DNA from: a bacterium
Lineage (GTDB): Bacteria; SAR324; NAC60-12
Reading direction: 5' to 3'
Length of the DNA: 64,000 bases
Assembly: GCA_965233585.1 (NCBI GenBank)
Contig: CBDDTI010000745.1
Coordinates: 128,001 to 192,000 of the forward strand
Part shown: positions 32,044 through 62,791 of the stretch, in pieces
How the letters are laid out: each line of letters starts with the position of its first letter
Numbering within the stretch: position 1 is the first letter of the stretch
Made by a program: the position numbers and the translations under genes
The notes under the pieces: generated by a model
Seen by the model: only the letters and a program-made list of their open reading frames with translations
The model's database searches: none
What the model was told of the DNA's origin: nothing

Positions 32044-32985
32044 ATGTTCAGTAAAATTAATTGGCAAGACTACATTATTTACATTGTCTTTGCAGGGATT
32101 TTTTTGTTTTTCTCTTTGACCCTGTCAGATAGGGGTTTTTTAAATCCTGCAAATTTAATGAATATTGCAAGGCAGACGGCTATGATTTCTATCATGGCAG
32201 TAGGCATGACCTTTGTGCTTTCTGCTGCTGAAATTGATTTGTCATTTGGTGCTGTGGTGGCGCTGGCAGCCATTGTCTCGGCACTTGCGTTGAGAGCAAC
32301 CGATCATGTGTTGATTGCTGTCTTGTCTGGTTTGGGTGCAGGAACATTTGTTGGTGTCCTGAATGGTTTTTTTGTGGGTTATGTGGGAATCCCAAGTTTT
32401 TTAGTGACTTTGGGTATGACGGGCATTGTCACAGGTGTAGCCCGTTGGATAACACAGCTACGTTCTATTCCTGTTAACAATGATACCTTTACCTTTATCT
32501 TTGGTTCAGGAAACATTGGTCCTTTTTCTGTTTTGTTTTTTTGGATGTTTTTAGTCGCTATCGCTGGTGCTATTGCTTTGAACAAGACTGTGTTTGGTAG
32601 AGAAGTTTTGGCAACAGGAGGGAATCTGACATCATCGCTTTATTCAGGGATTCAGGTCAAAAAAATCAAAATGATGGTGCTGATTCTCAATGCTTTTTTA
32701 GCATCGTTGGCTGGAATTTTGTATGTTGGACGCCTTCATGGAGCGCGTTACACGCTTGGAGAAAATGACTTAATGGTTGTCATTGCTGCAGTGATCATTG
32801 GGGGGACAAGTTTATTTGGGGGCAAAGGAAGGGTGTTAGGGTCAGTCATTGGTGCATTGATTATGGGAATGGTCAATAATGGTCTGATTCTGATGAATTT
32901 ATCAGTAGATCATCAGCTTGTGTTACGGGGAATGATTATTATTCTAGCAGTCACTGTGATGATGAAAACAAGCCGAAAATCCTAA
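32044..32985 (+). CDS. Sugar ABC permease (RbsC-like)
   Basis: IDLSFG, IPSFLVTLG, IAAVIIGGTSLFGGKG. Confidence 0.93.
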   Translation: MFSKINWQDYIIYIVFAGIFLFFSLTLSDRGFLNPANLMNIARQTAMISIMAVGMTFVLSAAEIDLSFGAVVALAAIVSALALRATDHVLIAVLSGLGAGTFVGVLNGFFVGYVGIPSFLVTLGMTGIVTGVARWITQLRSIPVNNDTFTFIFGSGNIGPFSVLFFWMFLVAIAGAIALNKTVFGREVLATGGNLTSSLYSGIQVKKIKMMVLILNAFLASLAGILYVGRLHGARYTLGENDLMVVIAAVIIGGTSLFGGKGRVLGSVIGALIMGMVNNGLILMNLSVDHQLVLRGMIIILAVTVMMKTSRKS

Positions 32986-46654: not shown

Positions 46655-47035
46655 TTAGTTGGGAGTAGGAAGAGAAGCAAACAAAAAGGCTAGCATGACG
46701 CCAAGTGTCACGAGATTTAAGGAAATGCCAAAACCCACCATCCATGACAACAGCTTGAATTTGCTATCAACTTTCTTATTGAGACTAGCAACCTGCTCTT
46801 TCGTCGCTTTTTGCTTCAGCTGCTCTTCTAAACTAGCAACCTGTTCTTTCGTCGCTTTTTGCTTCAACTGCTCTTCTAAACTAGCAACCTGCTCTTTCGT
46901 CGCAAGTTTGGAAAAGTTGCTTTCCACAACAGATTTAAATTCTTCTGTTAGTGCCTCTGCTTGTTCTTGTTCAAAGCCTGCAGATTGAAGATGTTTAGAC
47001 GTCTTAAGTGTGTCAAAAAGCAAAGCAGTTTCCAT
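46655..47035 (-). CDS. DUF1640/CCDC90-like coiled-coil protein with C-terminal TM
   Basis: FDT...LQSAGFEQEQAEAL, LATK repeats, hydrophobic C-terminus. Confidence 0.82.
   Translation of the reverse strand: METALLFDTLKTSKHLQSAGFEQEQAEALTEEFKSVVESNFSKLATKEQVASLEEQLKQKATKEQVASLEEQLKQKATKEQVASLNKKVDSKFKLLSWMVGFGISLNLVTLGVMLAFLFASLPTPN
46784..46903. repeat. In-frame 48-bp tandem repeat x2.5
   Basis: Units at 46784, 46832, 46880 encoding ATKEQVASLEEQLKQK. Confidence 0.93.
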
Positions 47036-49605: not shown

Positions 49606-50259
49606 ATGAATAAACAGACAGTCAGACAGGTTGCAATAACATTAGGCAGTTTTGTCAAATTTGTCATTCTTTACTTAGTGCTTGCTGAAGCAATCCAAGC
49701 CAAGCAAGTCAAATTAGTTTTTGTAGGAGATTCCATTACAGAAGGCTATGGTCTCTCTCAAAAAGATGCCTACCCAAGTTTGTTGGAGGACAAACTCAAA
49801 CAAGCTAAAATTCCGGTCAAGGTACTCAATGGGGGTGTCAGTGGAGCTAGTTCTGCAAGTGCAGAGTCTCGCGTCAAGTGGTATTTGAAGGTGAAGCCTG
49901 ATTGGATTGTCTTGCAGCTAGGAGGAAATGACGGCTTGAGGGGGCAATCTTTAGAAGAAACAGAAAACAATCTTGCAAAAGCGATTGAGCTAACACGAAG
50001 CAAAGGTGTCAAGGTTGCGATTTTAGGCATACGCATTCCAACAAATTATGGACAACAATATAGAAAGCAATTTGAGGAAATTTTTCCCAAGTTGTCAGAA
50101 AAATATCAAGTGCCTTTGCTCCCTCAATTACTTGAAAATGTTGGAGGAATACCTGAAATGAACCTACCTGATGGCATTCACCCAAACAAAGCAGGGCATC
50201 GTATCATTGCAAAAAATGTCTTTGAATTTTTTCTTCCTCTCTTATCTAAAGACTCATGA
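49606..50259 (+). CDS. tesA: GDSL arylesterase/thioesterase
   Basis: GDSITEGYG, LGGNDGLRG, DGIHP. Confidence 0.9.
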   Translation: MNKQTVRQVAITLGSFVKFVILYLVLAEAIQAKQVKLVFVGDSITEGYGLSQKDAYPSLLEDKLKQAKIPVKVLNGGVSGASSASAESRVKWYLKVKPDWIVLQLGGNDGLRGQSLEETENNLAKAIELTRSKGVKVAILGIRIPTNYGQQYRKQFEEIFPKLSEKYQVPLLPQLLENVGGIPEMNLPDGIHPNKAGHRIIAKNVFEFFLPLLSKDS

Positions 50260-50930
50260 CATTACTGAAACTTCAAAATCTTTCCAAACAGTTCCCTTCA
50301 CCTGACAAAACGTCTCCAGTTATCCCACTGGAACGTATAGACCTGACGGTAGAAAAAGGTGAAACTGTCGCCATCATAGGTAGTTCAGGCAGTGGAAAAT
50401 CTACTTTACTGGCATTGCTGGCTGGACTAGATACTCCCACCAATGGAACAATCCACGTTGGTGACCAATGTATTTCTAGCTTTTCAGAAGGAGAGCTGAC
50501 TGAGTTTCGTGCAACAAATTTAGGAATCATTTTTCAGCAGTTTTATTTGTTGCCCCATCTGACAACATTGGAAAATGTCGCATTGCCTTTGGAACTCCAA
50601 AATGATTCTGATGCCTTTCAAAAAGCGCAAAACATGCTGAAACTTGTCAACCTAGACCATCGTCTAAAACACTTCCCTAAGCAGTTAAGTGGAGGAGAGT
50701 GTCAACGGACTGCAATCGCAAGGGCATTGGTGGTACGACCCAAATTGCTGTTAGCAGACGAACCTTCAGGAAATTTGGATCAACAAAACGGAGAGAAATT
50801 AGCGGATTTGTTGTTTGACCTTGTCAAATCTATTCAAATGACAATGATTTTGGTTACCCACAGCCAAGAGCTTGCCAATCGTTGCAGCAGTATTTACCGA
50901 TTGCAGAATGGAAAACTTGTCAAGGTGTAA
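50256..50930 (+). CDS. ABC ATPase, YbbA/LolD-like
   Basis: [26 protein letters not shown]; coupled to tesA. Confidence 0.9.
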   Translation: MTLLKLQNLSKQFPSPDKTSPVIPLERIDLTVEKGETVAIIGSSGSGKSTLLALLAGLDTPTNGTIHVGDQCISSFSEGELTEFRATNLGIIFQQFYLLPHLTTLENVALPLELQNDSDAFQKAQNMLKLVNLDHRLKHFPKQLSGGECQRTAIARALVVRPKLLLADEPSGNLDQQNGEKLADLLFDLVKSIQMTMILVTHSQELANRCSSIYRLQNGKLVKV

Positions 50931-51163: not shown

Positions 51164-53659
51164 CTACTTCGTGTTAGTGGTCATAATGAATATCAAGCCT
51201 AAAACTCCCGTTACGATGCCATAGAGAGCTATCGCAATCGTTGTGTCGTTGGTGATGACAAATAACAAACTGCTTAAAAGTGGTCCGATTACATGACCTA
51301 TTCTTTCTAGGAAGATATAGGTTGCCGTAATAGATTTATTACCAAAACGCTCTGCAGACCGTGTTTTATTGATATGGGTTAAGACAGGTGCAGCAAGTAA
51401 GCCGTTTGATGCTCCTGCAAGCAACAAACAGACTAAAACAATGTACGTTGCAAGGTTGCTTAAACCGAACAAAGCCAAAAGTTTATTAAACTCTAAAGCG
51501 AGATTTGCTAAGGGAACAATAAGAAAAGCCATTCCTCCTACATCTTCTGCAGAAGTAAAGCCAACCATACCAAGCACAGCCATACTGACTGCCCCTATCA
51601 TTGCGCTAAGGAATAAAACACTCTTCGTGTTTCCAAGTGCATCAACTGTACGAGAAGCATAGTGGGTGACAACCATTGATGAGATATAATATAACATCAA
51701 TAATTGCCCAATTTCTTCTGTGGTAAAACCATTAATTGAAAGCACCAATGGCACTGCAAACATGACTACGCCCGTGATTGCTGCCTTACCAATCAGGCTT
51801 AGGCACATCAAGGTTTTAACAAATTCTGCATCTTTCAGGCAACTGATAATATTTTGCAGCAACCGTCTAAAACGGACAGTTGTTTTAGACTTCATTTGGG
51901 CTTGATGCACAATAGTATCCACACTTGGCACAAGAACCCAGAGGTACACAATGCTAATCATACTGACAGCAGCACTGACAAGAAAAAGTGTTTGATAATC
52001 CATGTAAGAATACAACAAAGCACCAATGGCTGTTCCTGATATTAAACCTGCATTGCGTCCGATCACTTTGACTGCCGCACCCTGTGTCCTTTTATTTTGA
52101 GGGGTAATAGCGAGAATATAAGATTGCAAGCCAATCAAAAATAGTCCTTGACCAATTCCAGAAAAACATCTTCCTATGGTGAGAAACCAATAATCATCAA
52201 TAAATCCTATGAGTAAAAGCCCAACCAATTCAGAAAAGAACCCCACAGCCATCAACTTCTTCAAGTCACCATTTTCTGCATACTGTCCAGCAGGCACGAG
52301 AACCATCGCAAAAAAGAAATAGAAAATGGTAAAAGGAAGAGATGCCGTTGCGGAAGATGAATTGGTCTCAGAAGCGAGTTCTTTCACAAGTTGGGGTAAA
52401 AATGAAACAGCAAGAGCGTTGACAAAAACGACAAGAAAATAGGCAGGCTTGACTAACCGAAGACCCATTTGAAAACTCTCATCATCTTTAGCGAGGTGAG
52501 GGTCATCGTTCTTTTTTTGTTGAGAAATTTCTCTTTTCTCAACCCATACCATCAATGTTGTTCCAGCATCTAAGAACAAGGCAGAGATCAGACCACACGC
52601 AATCAGCAACACTAAAAACGCCTTCCCACGAGACAGAATTTCTTGAAAAATAACATTTTCTGGCAAAGACACAATCACAGCAAAATTTTCAATAGATTCC
52701 TCGGATCCAACACGACTCACTTGACTAATCACATCGCTTGGTTTGGTATAGACTTTTCCTAATTGTGTTTGATCGGTGTGAAAGAGAATATTATTATCTT
52801 TTAAGATGGCAATGTTACTAATATCAGGGTTATTGCGTTGGTAGTTTTGTAAGGCATTGTTTATCCCCTCAATACTTGAAAAATCAATACCCAAATCTAA
52901 AATCACCGACAGCCGCTCACTCAAAGACCCTGACAAAGCGGCAGCTCTTGCAGTAGCACCATGCTCATAAATTTTAAATATCACAGCCCCGATAGAAGAG
53001 GACATAATCAGGAAACAAATCAAATAAACAATCTCTAAAGAACGTCTTTTGTACTTCCTATTAATCCCCAATGCCTCATAGATGATGACAAAGGCTGCAA
53101 AAAAAGCATTGAGACCCAGAAAGATGTTAAAAATCAAACTAAACGAATCTTCTAAATATGCAAAAACTCTATCCTTTCTTGATTCAACAATCAGGTAACC
53201 TGCAACAACAAATTTATTTTTGAGAGACAGAGTGACCCTGAAACTGGCATTTGATTCCTCAACCAAGATGTTGTCTCTGGAATATTCCATTTCGGAATAT
53301 ACCCTTTGTTTGAGGACTTTTGCTAAATCTTCTTGGGCAATATCACTGGCAACGTTTGTAAAAATAGGCTTGCGTTGTGAGTTGAGTAACCTGAAACTTT
53401 CAAGGGTATTGTCAGAGCGAAGCAAAGTGTTGGTTTGATTAGTGAAGCCGCTGTATTGTTTGAGAGATAGCCCAGACTGAAGATAACGATCCAGGGAGTT
53501 TTTAATAATCTCTCCTTGCGCAATAAGCTTTCCTGATTCAAATTTAGGATACTTTCTTTTGACCTCACCCCAACCAATGTAAACCAACAACAGCAGAGTT
53601 AATGCTAAAACTGCAACCAAAGGAAGGGAGAATAACATCCCCAATACTTTTCTATTCAT
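51164..53659 (-). CDS. MFS transporter fused to an N-terminal region with 4 TMs and two extracytoplasmic domains
   Basis: C-terminal ~430 aa MFS pattern (IGRCFSGIGQG, GTAIGALL, ERIGHVIGP); N-terminal TM-loop-TM-TM-loop-TM. Confidence 0.8.
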   Translation of the reverse strand: MNRKVLGMLFSLPLVAVLALTLLLLVYIGWGEVKRKYPKFESGKLIAQGEIIKNSLDRYLQSGLSLKQYSGFTNQTNTLLRSDNTLESFRLLNSQRKPIFTNVASDIAQEDLAKVLKQRVYSEMEYSRDNILVEESNASFRVTLSLKNKFVVAGYLIVESRKDRVFAYLEDSFSLIFNIFLGLNAFFAAFVIIYEALGINRKYKRRSLEIVYLICFLIMSSSIGAVIFKIYEHGATARAAALSGSLSERLSVILDLGIDFSSIEGINNALQNYQRNNPDISNIAILKDNNILFHTDQTQLGKVYTKPSDVISQVSRVGSEESIENFAVIVSLPENVIFQEILSRGKAFLVLLIACGLISALFLDAGTTLMVWVEKREISQQKKNDDPHLAKDDESFQMGLRLVKPAYFLVVFVNALAVSFLPQLVKELASETNSSSATASLPFTIFYFFFAMVLVPAGQYAENGDLKKLMAVGFFSELVGLLLIGFIDDYWFLTIGRCFSGIGQGLFLIGLQSYILAITPQNKRTQGAAVKVIGRNAGLISGTAIGALLYSYMDYQTLFLVSAAVSMISIVYLWVLVPSVDTIVHQAQMKSKTTVRFRRLLQNIISCLKDAEFVKTLMCLSLIGKAAITGVVMFAVPLVLSINGFTTEEIGQLLMLYYISSMVVTHYASRTVDALGNTKSVLFLSAMIGAVSMAVLGMVGFTSAEDVGGMAFLIVPLANLALEFNKLLALFGLSNLATYIVLVCLLLAGASNGLLAAPVLTHINKTRSAERFGNKSITATYIFLERIGHVIGPLLSSLLFVITNDTTIAIALYGIVTGVLGLIFIMTTNTK

Positions 53660-53682
53660 AAATAATAACTAACTGAACGATT

Positions 53683-54846
53683 TTATCTCACCTCTTGCCC
53701 AAAGTTGCGGACCATTCTGCCACTATAATCATAAATAAAAGCTGCTGATTCAATAATACTGAAAGGGATTTTGAGATTGATCTTTCTTGCCACAGCAAAA
53801 TTGATTGCCAAATCAGGAGGCGTTACAACACCAACTTTTAGTTTTCCCGGCTGCACTTGTTTTTTAAGAATCCTAATAGCATATACACTTGCCAAATGAG
53901 CATTGTTTCGTCGGTCAATGCCTACTGCCAAAACAGCGCTGCCTGTGCCTTCACTCACAATGTTAGGGATGGACCCTAAAACTGGAACAACAGAAGAAAG
54001 CTGGCTAATCATATCTATCTTAGAAAAGACAGCAGTACTACTTGTCACCCAGAAAATACTATTTTGCAGTGAGGGGTCATTCTTTTTCATTGTCTCAATA
54101 GCAACTGGGATTTTTTCGGTCAACGTGTATTCAGCAGGAACGTCATCGCCTACTGCAATATCAAAGACATTCAAACCGAGTTGCTCCAATTTAGTTTTGA
54201 ATGGTCTGACCTCTGTTGCCATCACCGCCCCATGATTCCGATCATACATAATCGCAATGTTTTTGATATTTGGCTTGAGCCTCTTGAGGTAATCCATCTG
54301 CAAACTGATTGGAACGTTCAACGATGTCCAAGCAATATTTGAACGACTGCCTGTGTCATAATCCTTGACAAGCCCCAAAAGAACAGGGTCTTTAGTGATA
54401 GAAACGACAACAGGAAGTTTACCACCCTCATAATAACTTTTGATAAAACGAGCTGACTCTGAACCAGCAGTAAAAATCAAATCATAATTATTATTTTCTG
54501 CAAAAACAACTGATCTTTTTGCATATTCTTCATCTTTTGCAAAATTTTGGACGGTTAAGTGAGCATACACCTCCTCACGTTCCAAAATTTCTAGCAGTTT
54601 GTTCACTGCAGTCGTATAGCTGCCAGATTTTTTTGAGACCAAAACAAAAATACGAGCTTCTAGGGAGGAAGACGTTTTTTCCCACTTTGGTTTGATGACC
54701 AGAGATTCTCCCTCGATGGCACTCTGATAAAAATCTAAATTTTTATCATTCAGCTTCAACCAAGAAATGTAATATTTGGAAGTTTGTGCCAGCCCCACTT
54801 GCTGTAAAAACAGAACCAAAACAGATATTAAGATGTATTTTTTCAT
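53683..54846 (-). CDS. Periplasmic substrate-binding protein (ABC_sub_bind-like)
   Basis: Signal peptide; YDLIFTAGS, LPVV...DPVLLGLV, LAINFAVARKINLKIP. Confidence 0.8.
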   Translation of the reverse strand: MKKYILISVLVLFLQQVGLAQTSKYYISWLKLNDKNLDFYQSAIEGESLVIKPKWEKTSSSLEARIFVLVSKKSGSYTTAVNKLLEILEREEVYAHLTVQNFAKDEEYAKRSVVFAENNNYDLIFTAGSESARFIKSYYEGGKLPVVVSITKDPVLLGLVKDYDTGSRSNIAWTSLNVPISLQMDYLKRLKPNIKNIAIMYDRNHGAVMATEVRPFKTKLEQLGLNVFDIAVGDDVPAEYTLTEKIPVAIETMKKNDPSLQNSIFWVTSSTAVFSKIDMISQLSSVVPVLGSIPNIVSEGTGSAVLAVGIDRRNNAHLASVYAIRILKKQVQPGKLKVGVVTPPDLAINFAVARKINLKIPFSIIESAAFIYDYSGRMVRNFGQEVR

Positions 54847-54995
54847 CTTGCCTTTAGGAATATAAAAATTAGGTTGTAGCACATAATGTGCCACAGTATA
54901 TTTGCTTAAATATAGAACTATTCAAGATTGAGTTTCAAGTCACATATCAAGAAATCCCAGCTATCATCAAATTTGAATCCCCAAGTGATGATCAA

Positions 54996-55661
54996 TTATG
55001 TTCTCTTGGTAAAAAATGCTCCTCTTCCCAACGACCAGCAGTTATTAATTGTCCAATATAAAACTGCTGCTGCTGGGGCTGTGTAAAGAATTACTAAAAA
55101 AAAGAATGCTAAAGCCAGTAATTTCAGAGTTTCAGAAGCTGTTACTGCCTCAAAAAAATAAAGCGACCCCAAATTAATCAAAGTCATAATGACAGGAAGC
55201 ACGTTAACATCAAGTCCTGCAATGTTTAGAATTTGATCAGGTTTTGATAAATCATTGACCAAAAAGAAAGAAACACCCTGAAAAGGAGTGTAACTAATCA
55301 ACAAGAGATATGCCGCTATGAAAAATGGCACTTGAATAAAAAACCCCAAACTGGACCGCAAAGACTGAATGGGGTGATAACGATGTTCTTTGTAGAGTTG
55401 TGAGATTTGTTTAAAACGTTCTTCACCTCGTGAATTTTTTTTAATCTCTATTATTTTGGGTTGCAACACAGACTGAATCTGGCGTTCTTTCTGGTCTAGT
55501 TTTTCTGCAATTTGATAAAGCGGTATCATCAAGAGATTCACAGCCAGACTCAAGATAATAATTGACAAACCATATTCTCCAACCACTGCAAACGCTTGTT
55601 CCAATATCAGTTGCATCAAAAGTGAGAGTGGGGCAATAAAAATAGATTGTAATAACTCCAT
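54996..55661 (-). CDS. Short YidC/Oxa1 family insertase
   Basis: YGLSIIILS, LQPKI, LYKEHRYHP, IQVPFF, DLSKPD, PAAAVLYW..NN; no periplasmic domain. Confidence 0.85.
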   Translation of the reverse strand: MELLQSIFIAPLSLLMQLILEQAFAVVGEYGLSIIILSLAVNLLMIPLYQIAEKLDQKERQIQSVLQPKIIEIKKNSRGEERFKQISQLYKEHRYHPIQSLRSSLGFFIQVPFFIAAYLLLISYTPFQGVSFFLVNDLSKPDQILNIAGLDVNVLPVIMTLINLGSLYFFEAVTASETLKLLALAFFFLVILYTAPAAAVLYWTINNCWSLGRGAFFTKRT

Positions 55662-56777
55662 TTACAGACTTTCCAAAATTTCAATGATTTGATTGGCAGC
55701 AATTTCACCGACCTGCCCGACATGGTATAAAGAGCTATTCATTAATTCTGTCATTTGTTCCTGATTCATTTGTGTTGTGGTTTGCTTCACGATATGAGCT
55801 AGTTGTGGCAAATCTTTTTCTGTGATTACCGTCCCCAGCATTTTCCTCACACGCAATTCCCAAAGTTCATTATCTAGTAAATCTATTTCCGTTCCTTCTG
55901 TCTCAATTTCAGATTCAACACAGATGACAGGTTTTTTGCACAAAAAAGCAAAATCAAAAATCATGCCTGACAAATCTGAAATCATGGCGTCCGCTTGGAG
56001 CATGGAAGACATTCCATCATTCTCATAGTCCCATGTGACTAAATCAGAATGGCTGAATCTCTGCTTCAAACTTTGCAAAAGTGCGGGATGAGAAATTTTT
56101 GTCTGTGGGTGTGGTCGGACAATCACTGAATAATTCTGGGCAATCAAGGGGTCAATCAACTTGTGTCCATAACGTTCTAGGCAACTATTTTTACCCCAAG
56201 TCCCTGCAATTAAAACGGTTGGCTGATTTGATTCTTGGACAGAATAAGCCTCCTTTTTTTGAAATAAAAAATCTAAGTGAGGAAACCCAGTCTGATAAAG
56301 TGTCTTGGGAGGTGTTTGGTGCTTTTCTTCCAGAGTTCTAATATCCAATTCTTGGTGCTTTCCTGCACACAAAACACTATCAAAGTGATCAAAAGCATGC
56401 GACCGATACAAACCACAACCTGTTGGTGCATGGAAAAGATAAGTGTAATGCTTGACCCCTGGAGACCTCTTGATGTTAAGAATGTTTAGATTTGGTGTGG
56501 TCATCACGACAAGCTTTGCAGCAAGCAAGTTCATCCACAAAGCAGACCCTGTATTTCCTCCGATAAAAAACGCATTCACCCCAGACAGTCCCATCTTAAA
56601 GACAGGATCACTCTGGCTCATGGTCAGAACACAACTTTGCTGACCTTTTTGTGTCAGAGCCTTCAGCACGGGTTCAAGTGTTGAAAAATATTGACCACCT
56701 TCAGAAAAAAAAACTAAATGACGACTTTCTTTGGGAAGGTTCAGAAAACGGATTGCCTCTTTGAGATAAAATCTCAT
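55662..56777 (-). CDS. CDP-glycerol glycerophosphotransferase (TagB/TagF-like) family protein
   Basis: FHA, TGFPHLD, LIAGTW, VRPHP, MISDLSGMIFDF..KPV. Confidence 0.82.
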   Translation of the reverse strand: MRFYLKEAIRFLNLPKESRHLVFFSEGGQYFSTLEPVLKALTQKGQQSCVLTMSQSDPVFKMGLSGVNAFFIGGNTGSALWMNLLAAKLVVMTTPNLNILNIKRSPGVKHYTYLFHAPTGCGLYRSHAFDHFDSVLCAGKHQELDIRTLEEKHQTPPKTLYQTGFPHLDFLFQKKEAYSVQESNQPTVLIAGTWGKNSCLERYGHKLIDPLIAQNYSVIVRPHPQTKISHPALLQSLKQRFSHSDLVTWDYENDGMSSMLQADAMISDLSGMIFDFAFLCKKPVICVESEIETEGTEIDLLDNELWELRVRKMLGTVITEKDLPQLAHIVKQTTTQMNQEQMTELMNSSLYHVGQVGEIAANQIIEILESL

Positions 56778-56992
56778 TTTTTTGGATCAGACTCTTCTTG
56801 TGTATCTGGAACTGACGGCTTAAAGATCATATTTTTGAGCTTATAAAACCAGCCCCGCAAGGTATAGAGTAACGTGGCAATCACCCCGACAACAGCAGAA
56901 ACAAGCATGCTCCCTGTTCCAGGATCAAGGTAAGCAAAAGCATGTTGTGCAAACAAAAGAGCAACAGAGGTTGCAAATAAGAGCTTTGACAT
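56774..56992 (-). CDS. Small YLDPGTGS-motif membrane protein
   Basis: Signal peptide ending AFA, YLDPGTGS, one TM, basic tail; ATGA overlap with next gene. Confidence 0.8.
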   Translation of the reverse strand: MSKLLFATSVALLFAQHAFAYLDPGTGSMLVSAVVGVIATLLYTLRGWFYKLKNMIFKPSVPDTQEESDPKK

Positions 56993-57081
56993 AGAAACTA
57001 CCCATCAAAAAGTTCAAACCTTCAAATATAACCCACTTTGTGTTAGACTGCAACAATTAAACTTGATATTTAAGGAAGAAT

Positions 57082-57531
57082 ATGAAACGTACTCTGGTAG
57101 ATATGTCTGCAACCATTTTGCATCATGGTCATATAAGACTTTTGCAAAAAGCAAAAGAAATTGGTCACGTGACTGTAGGTCTTTGCACTGACGATGAAAT
57201 TCTGAAAACCAAAGGTTACATGCCTGAATTAGCTTTTGAATACCGCAAGGAAATCTTGGAAAGCATTCGCTATGTTGACAAGGTGATCCCTGCTCCATGG
57301 CTGATTGACAACGCATTTTTGGATAGACATCATATTGACCTGCTCATACACGGACATGACAATTCCAACACTGTTGACCCAGAACGAATCGTCACCTTCC
57401 CACGCACTGAAGGTACAAGCAGTTCTGACATTCGGGAGTATGCCGCACACGCCTACTTGTCAAGCCTACTCACCAAAGAAACCTTACCCGAAAAACTAAA
57501 ACAACTTTGCCTACAACTATCATCTAAATGA
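57082..57531 (+). CDS. Stand-alone cytidylyltransferase (TagD-like)
   Basis: ILHHGHIRLL, VGLCTD, HGHD, RTEGTSSSDIR. Confidence 0.9.
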   Translation: MKRTLVDMSATILHHGHIRLLQKAKEIGHVTVGLCTDDEILKTKGYMPELAFEYRKEILESIRYVDKVIPAPWLIDNAFLDRHHIDLLIHGHDNSNTVDPERIVTFPRTEGTSSSDIREYAAHAYLSSLLTKETLPEKLKQLCLQLSSK

Positions 57532-57534
57532 ACT

Positions 57535-59163
57535 ATGGATTCTAATCAATTAGCTCTTCATGTTGACTCTGTCGGAGTGCAATTCCAAACAGAGTATGGT
57601 CCTGTTGATGCCGTCAACAACGTCTCATTTCAGCTCAAAAAACGCTCAACCCTTGCACTCGTTGGAGAATCAGGTTCAGGTAAGTCTGTTGTTAGTCTGT
57701 CTATTTTGAAACTTCTACCGTACCCAACAGCAGTGCATAAATCGGGGTCTATTTGGTTTGATGGTCAAGATTTGCTTCAACTTTCCCAGTCAAAAATTAG
57801 GCATATTAGAGGCAAGCGGATTACTATGATTTTTCAAGAGCCAATGACTTCTCTCAATCCTCTTCATACGGTTGAACAACAGATTTCAGAGAGTCTTTTT
57901 TTGCATACGAAAGGTATGAAAAAGTCTCTTGCGACTGAACGGACTCTTGAATTGCTGAACCTTGTTGGCATTGATCGCCCATCAAAGCGACTCAAATCCT
58001 ATCCCCACGAGCTATCAGGAGGACAAAGGCAACGTGTGATGATTGCGATGGCTCTTGCAAACACTCCTGATATTTTAATTGCTGATGAGCCAACCACTGC
58101 CCTTGATGTCACAACGCAGCTCCAAATTCTTGATCTTTTGCAAGACCTTCAAGATCGCTTGGGTATGGCAATTTTGTTCATTACCCATGACCTCAATATT
58201 GTCAAAAAAATCGCTCAAGATGTTTGCATTATGAAAGGTGGAGAAATTGTAGAAGCAGGAGAGACAAGGGAGATTTTTACCTCACCTCAACACGAATATA
58301 CGAAAACCCTGATCAATGCCACACCTCAAGGATTCAAAGCACCCCCTGTGAAAGATGCTCCTACCATTCTCAAAGTCAATCACCTCAAGGTGCAGTTTAC
58401 TTTACATAAAAATTGGTATGGAAAAGCGATTGATGTTTTAGATGCCGTCAATGATGTTTCACTTGAACTCAAAGAAGGTCAAACCATTGGAATTGTTGGT
58501 GAATCTGGTTCTGGAAAGTCCACATTAGGCAAAGCCATTTTACACCTTGCCCACTTTCAGAATGGAACAATTCACTTTGAAGGCACTGACATTGCAAGAT
58601 GCACTACAAGAAGTTTGAGGAAGTTGCGCAAAGACATGCAAATTGTCTTTCAAGACCCTTTTGGTAGCTTGTCTCCAAGAATGACGGTGGGCGAAATTAT
58701 TGCAGAAGGATTGCTCACGCATGAAAAACACCTAACCAATCAGCAAAGGCATGAACGCGTTGAGAAAGTGATGAGGGAGGTCTCGCTTGAACCCGATATG
58801 TTTGTACGTTACCCGCATGAGTTTTCAGGTGGTCAAAGACAGCGCATTGCTATTGCTAGATCGTTGATTCTCAACCCTAAGTTTATTTTATTAGACGAGC
58901 CAACTTCTGCACTAGATCGTTTTGTGCAAGTCCAAATTGTCAATCTGTTAAGGGACTTGCAAAAAGAATTGAAACTTGCCTACCTTTTTATCAGCCATGA
59001 TCTGTCTGTCGTACGAGCCATGTCTGATTATGTTCTAGTAATGAAAAATGGAAAGATTTTAGAACAGGGGTCAGCAGAACAAATCTTCAATGAACCTCAA
59101 GCAGAATATACTCGCACACTAATTACTGCTGCCTCACCTGTCGCTATGGATTATGCAAATTGA
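57535..59163 (+). CDS. Peptide ABC ATPase with two NBDs (YejF-like)
   Basis: Two [12 protein letters not shown](L/F)SGGQRQR, DEPT motifs. Confidence 0.92.
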
Positions 59164-62100
59164 ACAACAAATAGAAAGATTGACTTCTCTTTACCAGATC
59201 ATTCCTTTCAATCGTTCAATTCAATCTCAAAATGAGATGTTAAGCTCTTTGGTTCAAGAGCTTCAAACCCACTTCATCTCTGAACAAATTCGCCAAACCT
59301 ACCCCGAGCAATCTATCAATACTGGGTTATCTCAAGCTCATCTCTTTCTCACAAAGAGAACTGAGGTCAACCATGAGCGGTTAAACTATATTGGACTCTC
59401 TTCAGTACCAGAACTCAAACTTGCTCTCTTTGAGACCTTGATTCTGTTCAACACTCCCAAAGGGTCGGAAGTTAAACTTGATCCAGTCAATAAAGACGCC
59501 AGTCAAAAAAAATGGAGGTTGTTCTATGAAAACGCACCATCAGGGATTGCTTGCATTTTACAACAACTTCCCCATGAGATTTTGCGGTCTGTTCATTCCA
59601 CGACCATTTACGAATATGTCCGCCAGTACTACCCTGACCTTCAAAATCCCCTCAAGCAACACGATAACCCTCATATCTGCTCTATTCTCTGTTCTGGAGA
59701 AATAGGAACAGCCGCTTACCACCCAGAGCAACCGATTGACTTCCACCTGATTTGTGATGCCCCCAAAACTTCACTCAAATGGAATGATGCGGATTTTTTC
59801 ATTGCAGCTATTCAAAAAATTTTCTCGGTTACGTACCAAATTTACCAAGAAAAGCTGGATCAAACAAAACTGTCAGAATCTGTGAAAAAACAAATTGACG
59901 AGCAGTATGCTGAATTATTGAGCAAAGATGAATTGCAACAGTTTCAAATCATGTTTCCAGATTCCTATTCGTACATCTATCAACTTGAAACGGAAAAATA
60001 TTTTGAGCAGGAGCAAACCTCTGTTCAAGCTAAAATCCTTTGGTCTGGCATCATTGAAGTTTTGTCTCAAACTCCATACTTTGAAAAATTTTTCTCACAG
60101 TTCAGACGTTTTTTCTCATTTATGAAAGTTCCTGCTGATCTGATGCAAGCCTACTGGTTTCCAGCATCACTAGACAAAGCATGGCAAGAACAAATCAGAA
60201 AGAAACTTCTTGAATTTTATACAAAAACGTATCTAAAGCCTCATCAACTTCAATCTATTTTCCGACACTATAAACTCTCAAAATCTAAAGATCAGGGGAA
60301 AGACCAAGACCTCACCTTGCTTAAACACTTACAATCTACTCCCCAATGTGCATCCATTGTTAAAAAATTTTTGCAAAATATTGTTCACTCTATCAGTTTT
60401 CACCAAATAGACACTTTTCATCAAGCGTTCCAACTTCTTCAGCAACTTTTTGACAAAAAAAGAGAAATTCTTGATAGTGATTTAAGCGATGAGTTAACAG
60501 AAATCATTCAAACCAATTTTTTTAAGCAACAGTTTAAAATTGCTCAAAATTATTTGGACGAGGAACGTTACAAGCATCAGGCAAAACATGAAGTAGAATT
60601 TTATTTAAAATTGCAAGATGCCACAGAATACATCAATACCAAATTTCAAAAAGTGTCTGTCCGCTTTCACGGTCATTTTCTGCGCAACCTTCAAGAAGAC
60701 AAGTTGCAATCCATTCTCACTATCACTCATGCACCAACAGGGGGCAAGCCCTTAAAAGACATTTTATATTCTTCTTTAACAGTTGCAGGACACCCTCTTT
60801 GCCCCTACCAGATCCCACACCTACTTCATACCTTTGGAAAAATTGGAGTGTTGGAGGCAAATTTGTTTCAAACGACTTATTCAGGCTTTAGCAAGGATGT
60901 AGAGGTGAGTTATTTACAGCTTCCTCACTTGGGGGGATTGGAGAAAATCAACCAATTTGGTGCGGCATACATTCTTCCTTTTTTACTTTACGAAACCATT
61001 AAGCTGGAGCAATGGGAGCTTCCTGAAGCCTTGCTCAATGCCTGGTGGCTAGAACTTGCATACTGCCAAGAACAACAACTCACTATTACAGAACTCATAG
61101 ACCAGCCAGAAAAACGTAAAAGCTTGCAACTTGCAAAACAAGGTGCAGAACATTGTCAAGCCATAGTCTCAATAGAGCAAAAATTTCCTAGACTAGCATC
61201 TCATTTCCGATGGGTGCAATTTGCAGAAATCTTTACAAACTCTGGGAAAGAAAATAGAAGTTATGCTGCATGGTGTTATGGAATGTACGTCTCTTTTGAA
61301 CGTATCATTGACGAGACAACACAAGTCAGGCAACTGTGGTCGGGTCAGAACCAGCCTTGGCAGATGCAATTTATTTTCAAATTTGCAGAGCTTTTTCTCA
61401 CAGATTTCACCGATGATTTTTTCATTGCAAATATCAACGGACAATTACAGCAACAAATCCGTCAGGCAAGAAAAATGAGAATTTTGTTCTTAGAAACCTT
61501 GCAACGTACTGAAAAGAAAATTCTTGAATACGATGCCCACCGTTGTTTGTCTAAATTGATGGGACTCCTTCTTAAAAAAAATGATTATGAATTTGCCAAC
61601 CATGCAGAAAAAATCTCAACTTTAACGCAAGAAAAATTAAGTGAGGTTTATTCACGTATCATCTTGACCGAACACAACAACAATCTCCAAGACCAAACGG
61701 CATTGACAGAATATGAATCTGCATCGGAAAGTCATACCGACTTTGAGACGCTAGCTCATCAAACTGCAGAACATTTGTCACAGCAATATCTTAATTTTAA
61801 CATCTTCGTACCAGAAGAAGACCTCAAAGCAGTTCTCTTGTCAAATTGTAGCCACGTGCAATGGAATCAAAATGAATGTGCCATGTTAAGACTAAGGTTA
61901 GCCATGATTTTCCAAAGTCAATCCCACCAGTTGCATTTACCGATTGCATACATGGTCGGAAAACCTAGACGATTTATCACAATTCATTTTGAACCCAATT
62001 CACAACGTTGGTCGTTTGAATCTACCACATTTCAGGTCAATCAGGGCTATCGTAAGTTTAACGAAACCAGTGATCCAGAAAATAAATTTGAAATCTTTGT

Positions 62101-62791
62101 CAATCACTTGAGTCATGGATTAGCGCAGTGTCTTTTCAGCAGGTATTATGGTGTGGAACAGAATGTCAAAACTATTTTTAAGAAAAAATCAGATCGTAAA
62201 CATATCTTGGGAACGGTACCGGGAAACCCTGTTTTCCCATCTACTCTTGAAGACCTATCCCACCAAATTCTGGACTTTTTCGTGCCTCAATCTATACGTT
62301 CTTACGAAATTTTTGCTTCCAAACATTATGTTCGGGATATTTTTGTGATCTGTAACATCAGTCGTTTTAATACGGTGTCTATCATTATCAGGGCAAATAC
62401 TGGTAGAATTTTTGTGTTAGAGCTTCACACGGATAGAATCCCTGTCAAACTTCATAGGAGAGATATGGAAGTAGATCCCGGGATTGCAAGGTTTTTCCTG
62501 CAACTTAATCATCAAAAAAGTAGAATGGAGCTTATACGGCTCATCAATCAATGTGATTTATCCTTTAATGAAAACGCCTTGCCTAGATATAAAATTTGGG
62601 TGAATCCAAATAACTTTGAAACGAGACTCAAGCCACAATACCAACAACCCTATTTGAGAGCCATTGCTAATGCAGTCTGGAATTCCAGACAGATAGGGAC
62701 TTATGATTTTTTAAAACCTGTCAAATTTGATTGTTCACTTAATTCTATTGGACAGAAGGCTGTGCAACAATTAACTGATATTCAAAATTAA
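59153..62791 (+). CDS. Large protein with degenerate class I adenylate cyclase-like motifs
   Basis: SILCSGEIGTAAYHPEQPIDFHLIC, DILYSSLTVAGHPL, HLGGL...PEALLNAWWLE occur in the order of CyaA motifs. Confidence 0.55.
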   Translation: MQIEQQIERLTSLYQIIPFNRSIQSQNEMLSSLVQELQTHFISEQIRQTYPEQSINTGLSQAHLFLTKRTEVNHERLNYIGLSSVPELKLALFETLILFNTPKGSEVKLDPVNKDASQKKWRLFYENAPSGIACILQQLPHEILRSVHSTTIYEYVRQYYPDLQNPLKQHDNPHICSILCSGEIGTAAYHPEQPIDFHLICDAPKTSLKWNDADFFIAAIQKIFSVTYQIYQEKLDQTKLSESVKKQIDEQYAELLSKDELQQFQIMFPDSYSYIYQLETEKYFEQEQTSVQAKILWSGIIEVLSQTPYFEKFFSQFRRFFSFMKVPADLMQAYWFPASLDKAWQEQIRKKLLEFYTKTYLKPHQLQSIFRHYKLSKSKDQGKDQDLTLLKHLQSTPQCASIVKKFLQNIVHSISFHQIDTFHQAFQLLQQLFDKKREILDSDLSDELTEIIQTNFFKQQFKIAQNYLDEERYKHQAKHEVEFYLKLQDATEYINTKFQKVSVRFHGHFLRNLQEDKLQSILTITHAPTGGKPLKDILYSSLTVAGHPLCPYQIPHLLHTFGKIGVLEANLFQTTYSGFSKDVEVSYLQLPHLGGLEKINQFGAAYILPFLLYETIKLEQWELPEALLNAWWLELAYCQEQQLTITELIDQPEKRKSLQLAKQGAEHCQAIVSIEQKFPRLASHFRWVQFAEIFTNSGKENRSYAAWCYGMYVSFERIIDETTQVRQLWSGQNQPWQMQFIFKFAELFLTDFTDDFFIANINGQLQQQIRQARKMRILFLETLQRTEKKILEYDAHRCLSKLMGLLLKKNDYEFANHAEKISTLTQEKLSEVYSRIILTEHNNNLQDQTALTEYESASESHTDFETLAHQTAEHLSQQYLNFNIFVPEEDLKAVLLSNCSHVQWNQNECAMLRLRLAMIFQSQSHQLHLPIAYMVGKPRRFITIHFEPNSQRWSFESTTFQVNQGYRKFNETSDPENKFEIFVNHLSHGLAQCLFSRYYGVEQNVKTIFKKKSDRKHILGTVPGNPVFPSTLEDLSHQILDFFVPQSIRSYEIFASKHYVRDIFVICNISRFNTVSIIIRANTGRIFVLELHTDRIPVKLHRRDMEVDPGIARFFLQLNHQKSRMELIRLINQCDLSFNENALPRYKIWVNPNNFETRLKPQYQQPYLRAIANAVWNSRQIGTYDFLKPVKFDCSLNSIGQKAVQQLTDIQN

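Follow-up and report, generated by a model that had tools for sequence, protein, structure and literature searches.

A PF04392 binding protein paired with a twin-PDC MFS protein in a SAR324 bacterium: a candidate ABC-independent transceptor

Known systems and the SAR324 locus

Transporter-fold proteins that report a solute to a signalling enzyme are known from the trigger transporters UhpC-UhpB and DctA-DcuS and from the yeast transceptors Snf3 and Rgt2; to our knowledge, all of them lack both PDC ectodomains and a binding-protein partner. Class III cyclases can be pseudo-heterodimeric, as the mammalian C1/C2 enzymes are, with one active and one degenerate cyclase-homology domain. Receptors of the LuxP-LuxQ kind, TorT-TorS among them, are stimulated by a periplasmic binding protein (SBP); LuxP docks on the PAS/PDC-type ectodomains of LuxQ. 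ATP-free transport that depends on a binding protein is known for TRAP (DctPQM), TTT (TctABC) and, recently, TAXI-GltS systems, in which an SBP serves a secondary carrier with four extra transmembrane helices (TMs) besides twelve. The TRAP and TTT tripartite transporters are described in PMC5812351 and PMC9352664, and PMC12344293 indicates that new classes of binding-protein-dependent secondary transporter are still emerging.

We analysed a stretch of 64,000 nucleotides (the window) from a bacterium of the SAR324 lineage NAC60-12, in which a PF04392 SBP gene lies next to a gene for an 831-aa protein. The features of this unit are as follows.

51164..53659, minus strand: gene of the twin-PDC/MFS fusion protein (831 aa; intact open reading frame)
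52526..53659, minus strand: N-terminal module, residues 1-378; a unit of one TM, a long stalk helix, an alpha/beta PDC-like domain and a second TM, present twice (model pLDDT 84.4)
53138..53581, minus strand: periplasmic PDC-like domain 1, residues 27-174, from the predicted fold against known structures
52622..52975, minus strand: periplasmic PDC-like domain 2, residues 229-346, from the predicted fold against known structures
51167..52489, minus strand: 12-TM MFS domain, residues 391-831, from Pfam, Foldseek and conserved columns
53660..53682, minus strand: 23-bp spacer between the two genes, in which a terminator-like site was not found
53683..54846, minus strand: SBP gene (PF04392, ABC_sub_bind; secreted), 387 aa from ATG, intact open reading frame, from a Pfam profile match
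54787-54846, minus strand: predicted cleavable SBP signal peptide, residues 1-20, no lipobox Cys, read from sequence
54909..54938, minus strand: candidate sigma-70-like promoter (TTGAAA-18-TATATT) within the 149-bp gap that precedes the SBP gene, a consensus match only

The pair resembles the LuxPQ type in having a binding protein and PDC-type ectodomains on which it may dock, but its output is an MFS domain and not a histidine kinase in the same chain, each PDC stands between its own pair of TMs and not in tandem on one pair, and the SBP is of PF04392 and not of LuxP type. Like TRAP, TTT and TAXI-GltS, it combines an SBP with a putative secondary carrier, four extra TMs and twelve TMs in the absence of an ATPase. 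The carrier, however, is a rocker-switch MFS protein, whereas DctM, TctA and GltS are of the elevator type; the SBP belongs to another family, and the four-TM part bears sensor domains and has no DctQ or TctB Pfam match. The SBP family is shared with ABC importers of the TrpX type, although here the SBP has about 55 N-terminal residues in addition and its partner is an MFS fusion protein instead of a permease and ATPase. In contrast to UhpC-type systems and transceptors, the outputs appear exchangeable, being cyclase, kinase or c-di-GMP enzymes. The degenerate cyclase domain, unlike that of the C1/C2 enzymes, sits on the MFS protein in certain relatives and is absent from the window's own protein, which ends without a cyclase-like tail. 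Our literature searches retrieved no description of a PF04392 and MFS pair or of PDC-topped MFS proteins, and no published MFS example of binding-protein-dependent transport.

Architecture of the two proteins

The first-pass annotation of this DNA had described a binding-protein gene 23 bp upstream of an 831-aa protein with two loops of about 140 and 110 aa, four extra TMs and an MFS domain. Both reading frames were recovered intact at that spacing, and a hydropathy scan gave the close figures of 148 and 118 aa with four TMs. The order is TM-loop-TM-TM-loop-TM followed by the 12-TM MFS domain: TM 8-26, loop 27-174 and TM 175-193 form the first half of the N-terminal module, and TM 210-228, loop 229-346 and TM 347-373 the second, with a K/R-rich turn of 16 aa between them. 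By the positive-inside rule, both long loops are placed extracellularly. The AF2 model of the whole protein has a mean pLDDT of 83.1 and a pTM of 0.79.

Both loops are sensor-type PDC folds in the predicted structure, in agreement with the earlier suggestion that they might be sensor-like or Cache-like. The first matched KinD (4jgo_A, VIA Z 10.6, rmsd 3.7, 138 aligned) and WalK (4ywz_A, VIA Z 10.4, rmsd 3.1, 124 aligned), and the second CitA (2j80_A, VIA Z 10.6, rmsd 2.6, 106 aligned) and DctB (2zbb_A, VIA Z 10.4, rmsd 3.9, 135 aligned). The periplasmic domain of LuxQ was also among the structural matches of the loops (2hj9_C, VIA Z 8.1; 3c30, 3c38), with Foldseek probabilities of 0.99-1.00 to WalK and LuxQ. 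The match is of fold only, as residues 1-400 gave no Cache, sCache or dCache Pfam match at E<=0.01. An internal duplication of the module was not found by BLASTP (E 26); a profile-profile comparison of the two units with hhalign gave a collinear alignment (E 1.7e-4, probability 50%), which lends weak support to a duplication.

The MFS half is the best-conserved portion of the protein. It matches MFS_1 (PF07690) over residues 408-703 (E 6e-29), and Foldseek aligned it with MdfA and VMAT2 at TM-scores on the target of 0.75-0.79 (0.65-0.79 with SPNS2 included). Invariant or nearly so in sets of 11 and of 34 sequences were G458, the E462 region, G464, K467, R497, D673 and G676. We take G458..E462..G464..K467 and D673..G676 to be motif-A-like loops of TM2-3 and TM8-9, and R497 to be the TM4 Arg.

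The SBP scored 69.6 bits (E 3.6e-19) with PF04392, for which the cut-off is 25.9, and matched NF041285 with E 4.1e-16, far under the cut-off of the latter. A GTG at 54894 is an alternative start that would yield 403 aa. In the N-terminal segment ahead of the PF04392 core, W29 is invariant and W40 nearly so by sequence comparison. The PDB relatives of the SBP are 6hni, 3lkv and 3lft. The three liganded PF04392 structures hold L-Trp, L-Tyr or L-Phe, according to Table 1 of PMC10443332, and the window's SBP has low identity to them. The promoter scan that gave the match upstream of this gene returned 18 sites where 15.7 were expected.

Pairing and gene neighbourhood in relatives

Of 25 genome loci, 23 have the SBP gene next to the MFS gene, and the remaining two are cut upstream at a contig edge. 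A search of 40 kin genomes gave two strong relatives, and both have the SBP gene as well. The SBP gene precedes the MFS gene in 19 of the genome loci and follows it in 4, so the adjacency withstands rearrangement. In a metagenome scan with a profile built from 26 closer sequences, an SBP-profile match directly followed the MFS gene in 75 of 80 loci of a clade only about 30% identical; four of the remaining five had no downstream DNA and one was an exception. The two proteins share a single frame in six of these 80 loci and in P0123 and P0145, and an SBP of another family, PF12974, is fused N-terminally to the MFS protein in P0117 and P0118 with an additional TM that preserves the topology. The pairing is thus obligate and almost never separated, and the window's SBP gene is the single PF04392 gene of a 12-Mb genome. 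The N-terminal module was found at E<=1e-3 in 538 representative clusters (50% identity) from several phyla. MFS_1 was matched in 33 of the 34 scanned sequences from its 150 best matches (31 above the curated cut-off), and PF07690 was present in 36 of 38 matches in a further comparison. Cultured carriers of the pair include Algibacillus agarilyticus (L018), in which the SBP, MFS and cyclase genes abut, as well as Litoribrevibacter euphylliae and Litoribacillus peritrichatus, in which a Ser/Thr kinase adjoins the pair.

No ABC route was apparent. The unit in the window has no ABC permease, ATPase or kinase, and no conserved permease (PF02653) or ATPase was seen beside the pair in 105 related loci. 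The ABC ATPase at 50256-50930 (plus strand) is convergent to the unit and sits with a GDSL lipase; the nearest PF02653 permease (32044-32985) is part of a sugar ABC operon that is complete in itself, including a binding protein and an ATPase. In the unit, PF04392 and MFS_1 are the only Pfam matches, with none of the TRAP or TTT components (DctP, TAXI, TctC; DctQ/DctM, TctB/TctA).

That the unit lacks a signalling enzyme, first described as the lack of a kinase, holds for the window only; many relatives have adjoining signalling enzymes or fused signalling domains. A gene for a dCache protein with a class III cyclase adjoins the pair in 11 of 25 genome loci and in G044, with stop and start codons overlapping in places; the MFS and cyclase genes themselves abut or overlap in L001, L018 and L021. 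Degenerate cyclase-homology tails are carried on the MFS protein in L021, P0010, P0011, P0047 and P0100. These tails align with the neighbouring cyclase, C-terminal extension included, and lack the metal-binding and transition-state residues; P0010 and P0011 retain all invariant MFS residues. The MFS protein P0092 has an FHA insert. Ser/Thr kinases adjoin the pair in L008, L009, L012 and L013, a PAS-HK-REC protein at G023, and GAF/PAS kinases or GGDEF-EAL proteins in 35 of the 80 metagenome loci, the GAF/PAS proteins beginning with soluble domains. Across the family, the neighbours include cAMP, c-di-GMP, two-component and type VI secretion genes. A signalling enzyme is absent at L011, L020, L024 and L025, and no signalling gene adjoins the pair within the window.

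The window's genome has a full-length cyclase orthologue (E 7.9e-180, 43% identity, query 10-700) on the same contig, at a distance of about 170 kb, and because it is unlinked, its partnership with the pair is a guess. Such a full-length orthologue elsewhere was found in only 2 of 14 genomes without an adjacent cyclase at the locus.

In the distant clade, 37 of the 44 loci that could be assessed have a Ddl-like ATP-grasp ligase gene immediately upstream, and the ligase recurs in the sister family, which suggests that the cargo is metabolised. The L022 query found no ATP-grasp partner in the window's own genome (92% complete).

Three other assignments were dropped. In the sister-family loci G020 and G030, the two genes after the SBP had been guessed to be an ABC permease and an ATPase, and Pfam gives a D-Ala-D-Ala-ligase-like enzyme and a phosphopantetheinyl transferase. 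P0026 (1576 aa), considered as an MFS-cyclase fusion, has a best BLASTP E of 1.3 against the cyclase, with the dCache-like part only. A generic histidine-kinase sensor module was rejected as the general reading, since the kinase (HisKA and HATPase_c) occurs in P0051 only, which is one cluster whose closest relatives, at 48% identity, are without exception MFS fusions; P0051, on one 2475-bp contig, could be a chimera.

A proposed mechanism and its alternatives

The pair is probably a device in which the binding of an extracellular molecule is coupled to transport and to signalling in the cell. In the mechanism we propose, to which we give about an even chance, the SBP feeds an MFS transceptor, and the two work as a single device that is independent of ABC components. 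The SBP, once secreted, would bind a small molecule outside the cell and, once loaded, dock onto the platform of two PDC domains on the four-helix membrane bundle fused to the MFS protein. Docking would be relayed to the MFS domain, which retains the hallmarks of an alternating-access transporter and might import the ligand, report occupancy to signalling enzymes at the cytoplasmic face, or both. The likeliest output partner in the window's lineage would be the membrane dCache class III cyclase. The enzymes vary by lineage while the SBP and MFS protein stay constant, so the adjoining enzymes look like exchangeable outputs and not like the real partner of the SBP; nor is any ABC gene conserved that could take that place. 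Of the initial alternatives, a binding-protein-dependent or ligand-gated MFS protein or a transceptor, such exchangeable outputs favour the transceptor. The co-occurrence, the fusions, the PDC loops and the lack of ABC genes support the first-pass interpretation in part; the protein may transport, signal or do both.

Complex prediction, one of the checks suggested at the outset, gave ipSAE values of 0.54, 0.55 and 0.54 for the pair against a best control of 0.00, with at least 94% of contacts shared between runs and a partner pLDDT of at least 86. Among the reference cases, 116 of 157 solved complexes passed the mark, as did 2 of 215 mismatches, but passing scores up to 0.60 were obtained by only 18 of the 157 and yet by both of the passing mismatches. 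The value of the pair is in this weak band, and the predicted complex is weakly supported.

It is unlikely, although worth weighing, that the pair is a plain binding-protein-dependent MFS importer, with the PDC pair and four helices as a docking scaffold like a Q or TctB subunit and signalling neighbours that respond to the imported nutrient. By our own comparison, the layout of four and twelve TMs with an SBP would parallel the tripartite transporters; the strongly conserved MFS motifs and the Ddl-like ligase, with its hint of cargo metabolism, would suit an importer, and the GAF/PAS neighbours that begin with soluble domains could sense imported cargo. An importer would leave the degenerate cyclase tails and the FHA domain fused to the MFS protein itself, the abutting or overlapping MFS and cyclase genes and the receptor-typical PDC folds poorly explained, and the ATP-grasp query had no match in the window's genome. 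UhpC is an MFS sensor, and in a pure sensor the MFS domain would no longer move cargo but would act as a conformational transducer between the SBP-loaded PDC platform and the enzymes, as UhpC does for UhpB. The recurrence of signalling enzymes and fused signalling domains, and the likeness of the ectodomains to LuxQ, CitA and KinD, speak for such a sensor, which we nevertheless consider improbable: the MFS half is the best conserved and retains the TM4 Arg and a motif-A-like loop in each of its own halves, no output is universal, and the window and several other loci have no adjoining enzyme.

PDC domains usually bind ligands directly. They could bind a ligand of their own and thereby gate export or import by the MFS domain, while the SBP acts elsewhere and is only co-regulated, and the low complex score would agree with this. 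We regard it as very improbable, since the SBP adjoins in all testable loci but one, two SBP families are fused in frame, the genome has a single PF04392 gene and the complex-prediction controls scored 0.00.

Beyond the SBP-fed transceptor proposed above, we tentatively consider a new class of binding-protein-dependent MFS transporter that is also a modular receptor. Here the SBP-loaded, duplicated PDC "pseudo-dimer" would open the MFS domain for uptake and switch exchangeable outputs: histidine kinases, c-di-GMP enzymes, a cAMP cyclase through cyclase-domain pairing and, by way of FHA, a Ser/Thr kinase. Where a lineage has the Ddl-like ligase, the imported and ligated molecule might itself be the intracellular signal, as Lsr imports and modifies AI-2.

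No family of secondary carriers is larger than the MFS, and a binding-protein-fed member would therefore broaden the supposed abilities of that fold beyond the ATP-free systems described so far. With 538 clusters in several phyla and signalling and secretion genes as neighbours, the arrangement may be a common and overlooked link between the sensing of an outside compound and its uptake.

The gene pair and its conservation

The first-pass annotation had proposed that an ABC-type binding-protein (SBP) gene is paired with an 831-aa MFS protein carrying two extracytoplasmic loops, four extra TMs and a full MFS domain. Both ORFs are intact and lie head to tail, the SBP gene first, with a 23-bp spacer, and the predicted topology bears out the loops, the extra TMs and the MFS domain.

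53683-54846, minus strand, SBP gene: 387-aa secreted protein; PF04392 ABC_sub_bind match, E 3.6e-19
51164-53659, minus strand, MFS gene: 831 aa; sole Pfam match MFS_1, residues 408-703, E 6e-29

From hydropathy and the positive-inside rule, the MFS protein is predicted to have a cytoplasmic N-terminus, TM 8-26, an outside loop (27-174), TM 175-193, a 16-aa basic turn, TM 210-228, a second outside loop (229-346) and TM 347-373, then a cytoplasmic linker and 12 MFS helices. The N-terminal part with its two TM-loop-TM units is called the module here.

A promoter-like match (consensus match only) was found within the 149-bp gap 5' of the SBP gene. The region upstream (54996-57531) holds same-strand genes for a short YidC-like insertase (221 aa) and a glycerophosphotransferase-like PF04464 transferase, and a divergent cytidylyltransferase-like gene (57082-57531). 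None of the three recurs as a conserved neighbour of the pair's relatives; together they suggest a CDP-glycerol or teichoic-acid-like envelope pathway. Downstream, a convergent ABC ATPase gene is grouped with and overlaps a GDSL lipase gene (49606-50930, plus strand), which we take to be a TesA/YbbA-like arrangement; no permease gene follows them, since the opposite-strand MFS gene already ends 233 bp further on. Elsewhere in the window, an oligopeptide-type double ABC ATPase (57535-59163) is directly followed by a 1212-aa ORF (59153-62791, plus strand) that matches no Pfam family at E<=0.001, and a 126-aa coiled-coil protein (46655-47035, minus strand) has a C-terminal TM segment, repeats a KATKEQVASLEEQLKQ-like unit three times in tandem and gives a weak CCDC90-like match.

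The SBP-MFS pair is obligate. A pattern scan with one genome per species gave 25 loci from Thiotrichaceae, Oceanospirillales, SAR324, Spirochaetaceae, Bosea and others, and an SBP homologue directly adjoins the MFS gene in 23 of them (tblastn with the window SBP), in the order SBP-MFS in 19 and MFS-SBP in 4; in the other two (L012, L020) the sequence covers only 353 and 14 bases ahead of the MFS match, too little for an SBP gene to be seen. A second scan addressed a metagenome clade with only about 30% identity to the window protein; of 413 pattern matches, 237 were confirmed as relatives. The reading frame directly behind the MFS matches the SBP profile in 75 of the best 80 analysed, although in L108 the match consists of two fragments only. 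Four others (L062, L075, L093, L111) have at most 117 bases downstream, too short to show an SBP, and L072, with about 590 bases and no match, is the one exception among the 80. Strong module matches occur in only 2/40 kin genomes, so the distribution is patchy, and the SBP adjoins the module in both. The genome holding the window has one module copy and one PF04392 gene.

Predicted structure, fusions and possible docking of the module

The 831-aa protein was modelled with AlphaFold2 from a 34-row alignment (mean pLDDT 83.1, pTM 0.79), and its N-terminal 378 residues alone gave pLDDT 84.4. In the models each long loop begins with a long stalk helix that prolongs a TM helix; two short helices and a sheet of five strands follow, and the chain then runs into the next TM. 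The loop models were compared by Foldseek and by a Foldseek-independent structural aligner (VIA).

Structural matches of the modelled loops (VIA); helical-bundle proteins also appear at Z 9-10, so the stalk helices add noise.
Loop 1, KinD 4jgo_A: Z 10.6, rmsd 3.7, 138 residues aligned
Loop 1, WalK 4ywz_A: Z 10.4, rmsd 3.1, 124 residues aligned
Loop 2, CitA 2j80_A: Z 10.6, rmsd 2.6, 106 residues aligned
Loop 2, DctB 2zbb_A: Z 10.4, rmsd 3.9, 135 residues aligned

LuxQ from the LuxP-LuxQ complex reached Z 8.1 in the same comparison, and Foldseek, used independently, gave WalK, dCache chemoreceptor domains and LuxQ as its leading matches. On these matches both loops, as modelled, are PDC/Cache-type sensor folds, as the first annotation had wondered, despite the lack of any Pfam Cache profile match at E<=0.01 in the protein. 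The two units align collinearly in a profile comparison (E 1.7e-4, probability 50%), which weakly supports their origin by internal duplication. The twin-PDC module resembles, we infer, the TM-PDC-TM dimer of sensor kinases with its two halves joined covalently. In structure, the C-terminal half is similar to MdfA, VMAT2, sialin and SPNS2.

Module, MFS and SBP share one stop-free frame in 6/80 metagenome loci, and the metagenome proteins P0123 and P0145 have the same single-frame layout. In P0117 and P0118 a different binding-protein family, PF12974, stands at the N-terminus, separated from the module by one more hydrophobic segment, so that the SBP remains on the outer side of the membrane. 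These fusions argue for a physical partnership of SBP and MFS, and they suggest a platform able to accept more than one SBP family. Four proteins (P0012, P0014, P0015, P0021) carry two module copies each.

Complex prediction, which the first-pass annotation had named as a check, covered module residues 1-400 together with the mature SBP. The complex scored 0.54, 0.55 and 0.54 against 0.00 for three controls; the pass mark was reached by 116/157 solved complexes and 2/215 mismatches in the benchmark, and scores from the pass mark up to 0.60 include 18/157 solved complexes and both passing mismatches. Runs agreed in at least 94% of contacts, with partner pLDDT of at least 86. This result lends weak support to docking of the SBP on the module.

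A module profile matched 538 clusters at E<=1e-3 (203 at E<=1e-30) among 1.84 billion representative proteins. MFS_1 was found in 33 of the 34 members domain-scanned among the 150 best matches listed (31 over the curated cut-off), and the remaining one, P0051, carries a histidine kinase instead; this lone cluster, from a 2475-bp contig, is most closely related to MFS fusions. Thus this MFS clade has the module essentially to itself. Apparently stand-alone modules also exist, in P0115 (353 aa, 1.01-Mb contig) and other ~350-420-aa matches; by analogy, they could be a split form like the separate Q and M subunits of TRAP carriers.

Signalling and ligase neighbours of the pair

The pair had been described as having no kinase. 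This holds for the window, where no signalling gene adjoins it, but not for many relatives, which have cyclase, kinase or GGDEF-EAL neighbours or fused domains. A ~700-aa protein adjoins the pair in 11/25 genome loci; one member was domain-scanned (dCache_1 plus Guanylate_cyc) and the others were placed with it by BLAST clustering. Kin genome G044 also has this cyclase beside the pair. The MFS ORF shares 4 bases with the cyclase ORF in L001, and the two abut in L018 and L021. In L021 the MFS protein is extended by a 262-aa tail with homology to the catalytic domain and C-terminal extension of the neighbouring cyclase (E 6e-18); P0010, P0011, P0047 and P0100 carry this tail too (E 2e-24 to 4e-36). 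The aligned tails lack what we take to be the second metal-binding Asp and the active-site Asn and Arg, all kept in the neighbouring cyclases, and are degenerate cyclase-homology domains. As class III cyclases function in dimeric form, it is reasonable to suppose that the tail pairs with the active enzyme. Directly 5' of cyclase and pair, two SAR324-type MAGs (L006:119-4572, L007) encode a SulP-STAS transporter that includes a cyclic-nucleotide-binding domain and on which the cyclase's product could act.

A full-length cyclase orthologue is present on the window's contig ~170 kb from the pair (E 7.9e-180, domains confirmed). Because only 2 of 14 other genomes lacking the cyclase at the locus have a full-length orthologue elsewhere, the cyclase link is clade-specific, not universal.

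Other partners differ. Three Oceanospirillales genomes (L008:330-13067, L009, L013) have the pair embedded in a type VI secretion cluster, in the order TssM/IcmF, 291-aa Ser/Thr kinase, SBP, MFS, one to three ~425-aa paralogues with no Pfam match, and VgrG; the kinase and SBP ORFs overlap, and the pair may be an input to the T6SS threonine-phosphorylation switch. P0092 has an FHA domain in its central cytoplasmic MFS loop (residues 615-692), which hints at phospho-threonine-dependent control. A 743-aa Ser/Thr kinase lies downstream of the pair in L012 and a PAS-HisKA-HATPase-REC protein in G023, the nearest kin with the pair. The ~30%-identical clade has a GAF/PAS protein cluster in 35/80 loci (three histidine kinases and two GGDEF-EAL proteins among five scanned) and a Ddl-like ATP-grasp ligase upstream in 37/44 testable loci, mostly spaced by 38-64 bases. 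A more distant sister family from the window genome's own taxonomic family (L121:5239-11180 in G020; L122 in G030) has the order twin-loop MFS (module match E 5e-18), TerB-like 151-aa protein, PF04392 SBP, D-Ala-D-Ala-ligase-like enzyme and 4'-phosphopantetheinyl transferase. A single query found no ATP-grasp partner in the window's genome.

Transport, sensing or both

The absence of an ABC ATPase or permease from the unit was upheld, and neighbour clustering found neither conserved across 105 loci. The window's genome has 16 PF02653 permease matches; the one in the window is part of a sugar ABC operon that is complete in itself, binding protein and ATPase included. In the three PF04392 structures solved with a ligand, that ligand is L-Trp, L-Tyr or L-Phe (PMC10443332). 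Many uncharacterised domains are fused to MFS proteins, mostly C-terminally, according to a review (PMC10710835), and our literature searches returned no description of a PF04392 plus MFS pair or of PDC-topped MFS proteins.

We consider a plain SBP-dependent importer rather unlikely. A pure sensor is less probable again; motif-A-like loops in both MFS halves and the TM4 Arg are well conserved, cyclase-tailed members included. PDC-gated transport with an unrelated SBP, set beside the conserved adjacency and the fusions, is very improbable. Because SBP, twin-PDC platform and a well-conserved MFS recur throughout the family, whereas the signalling enzymes vary, as does the ligase present in some clades, we favour, at about an even chance, a binding-protein-fed transceptor.
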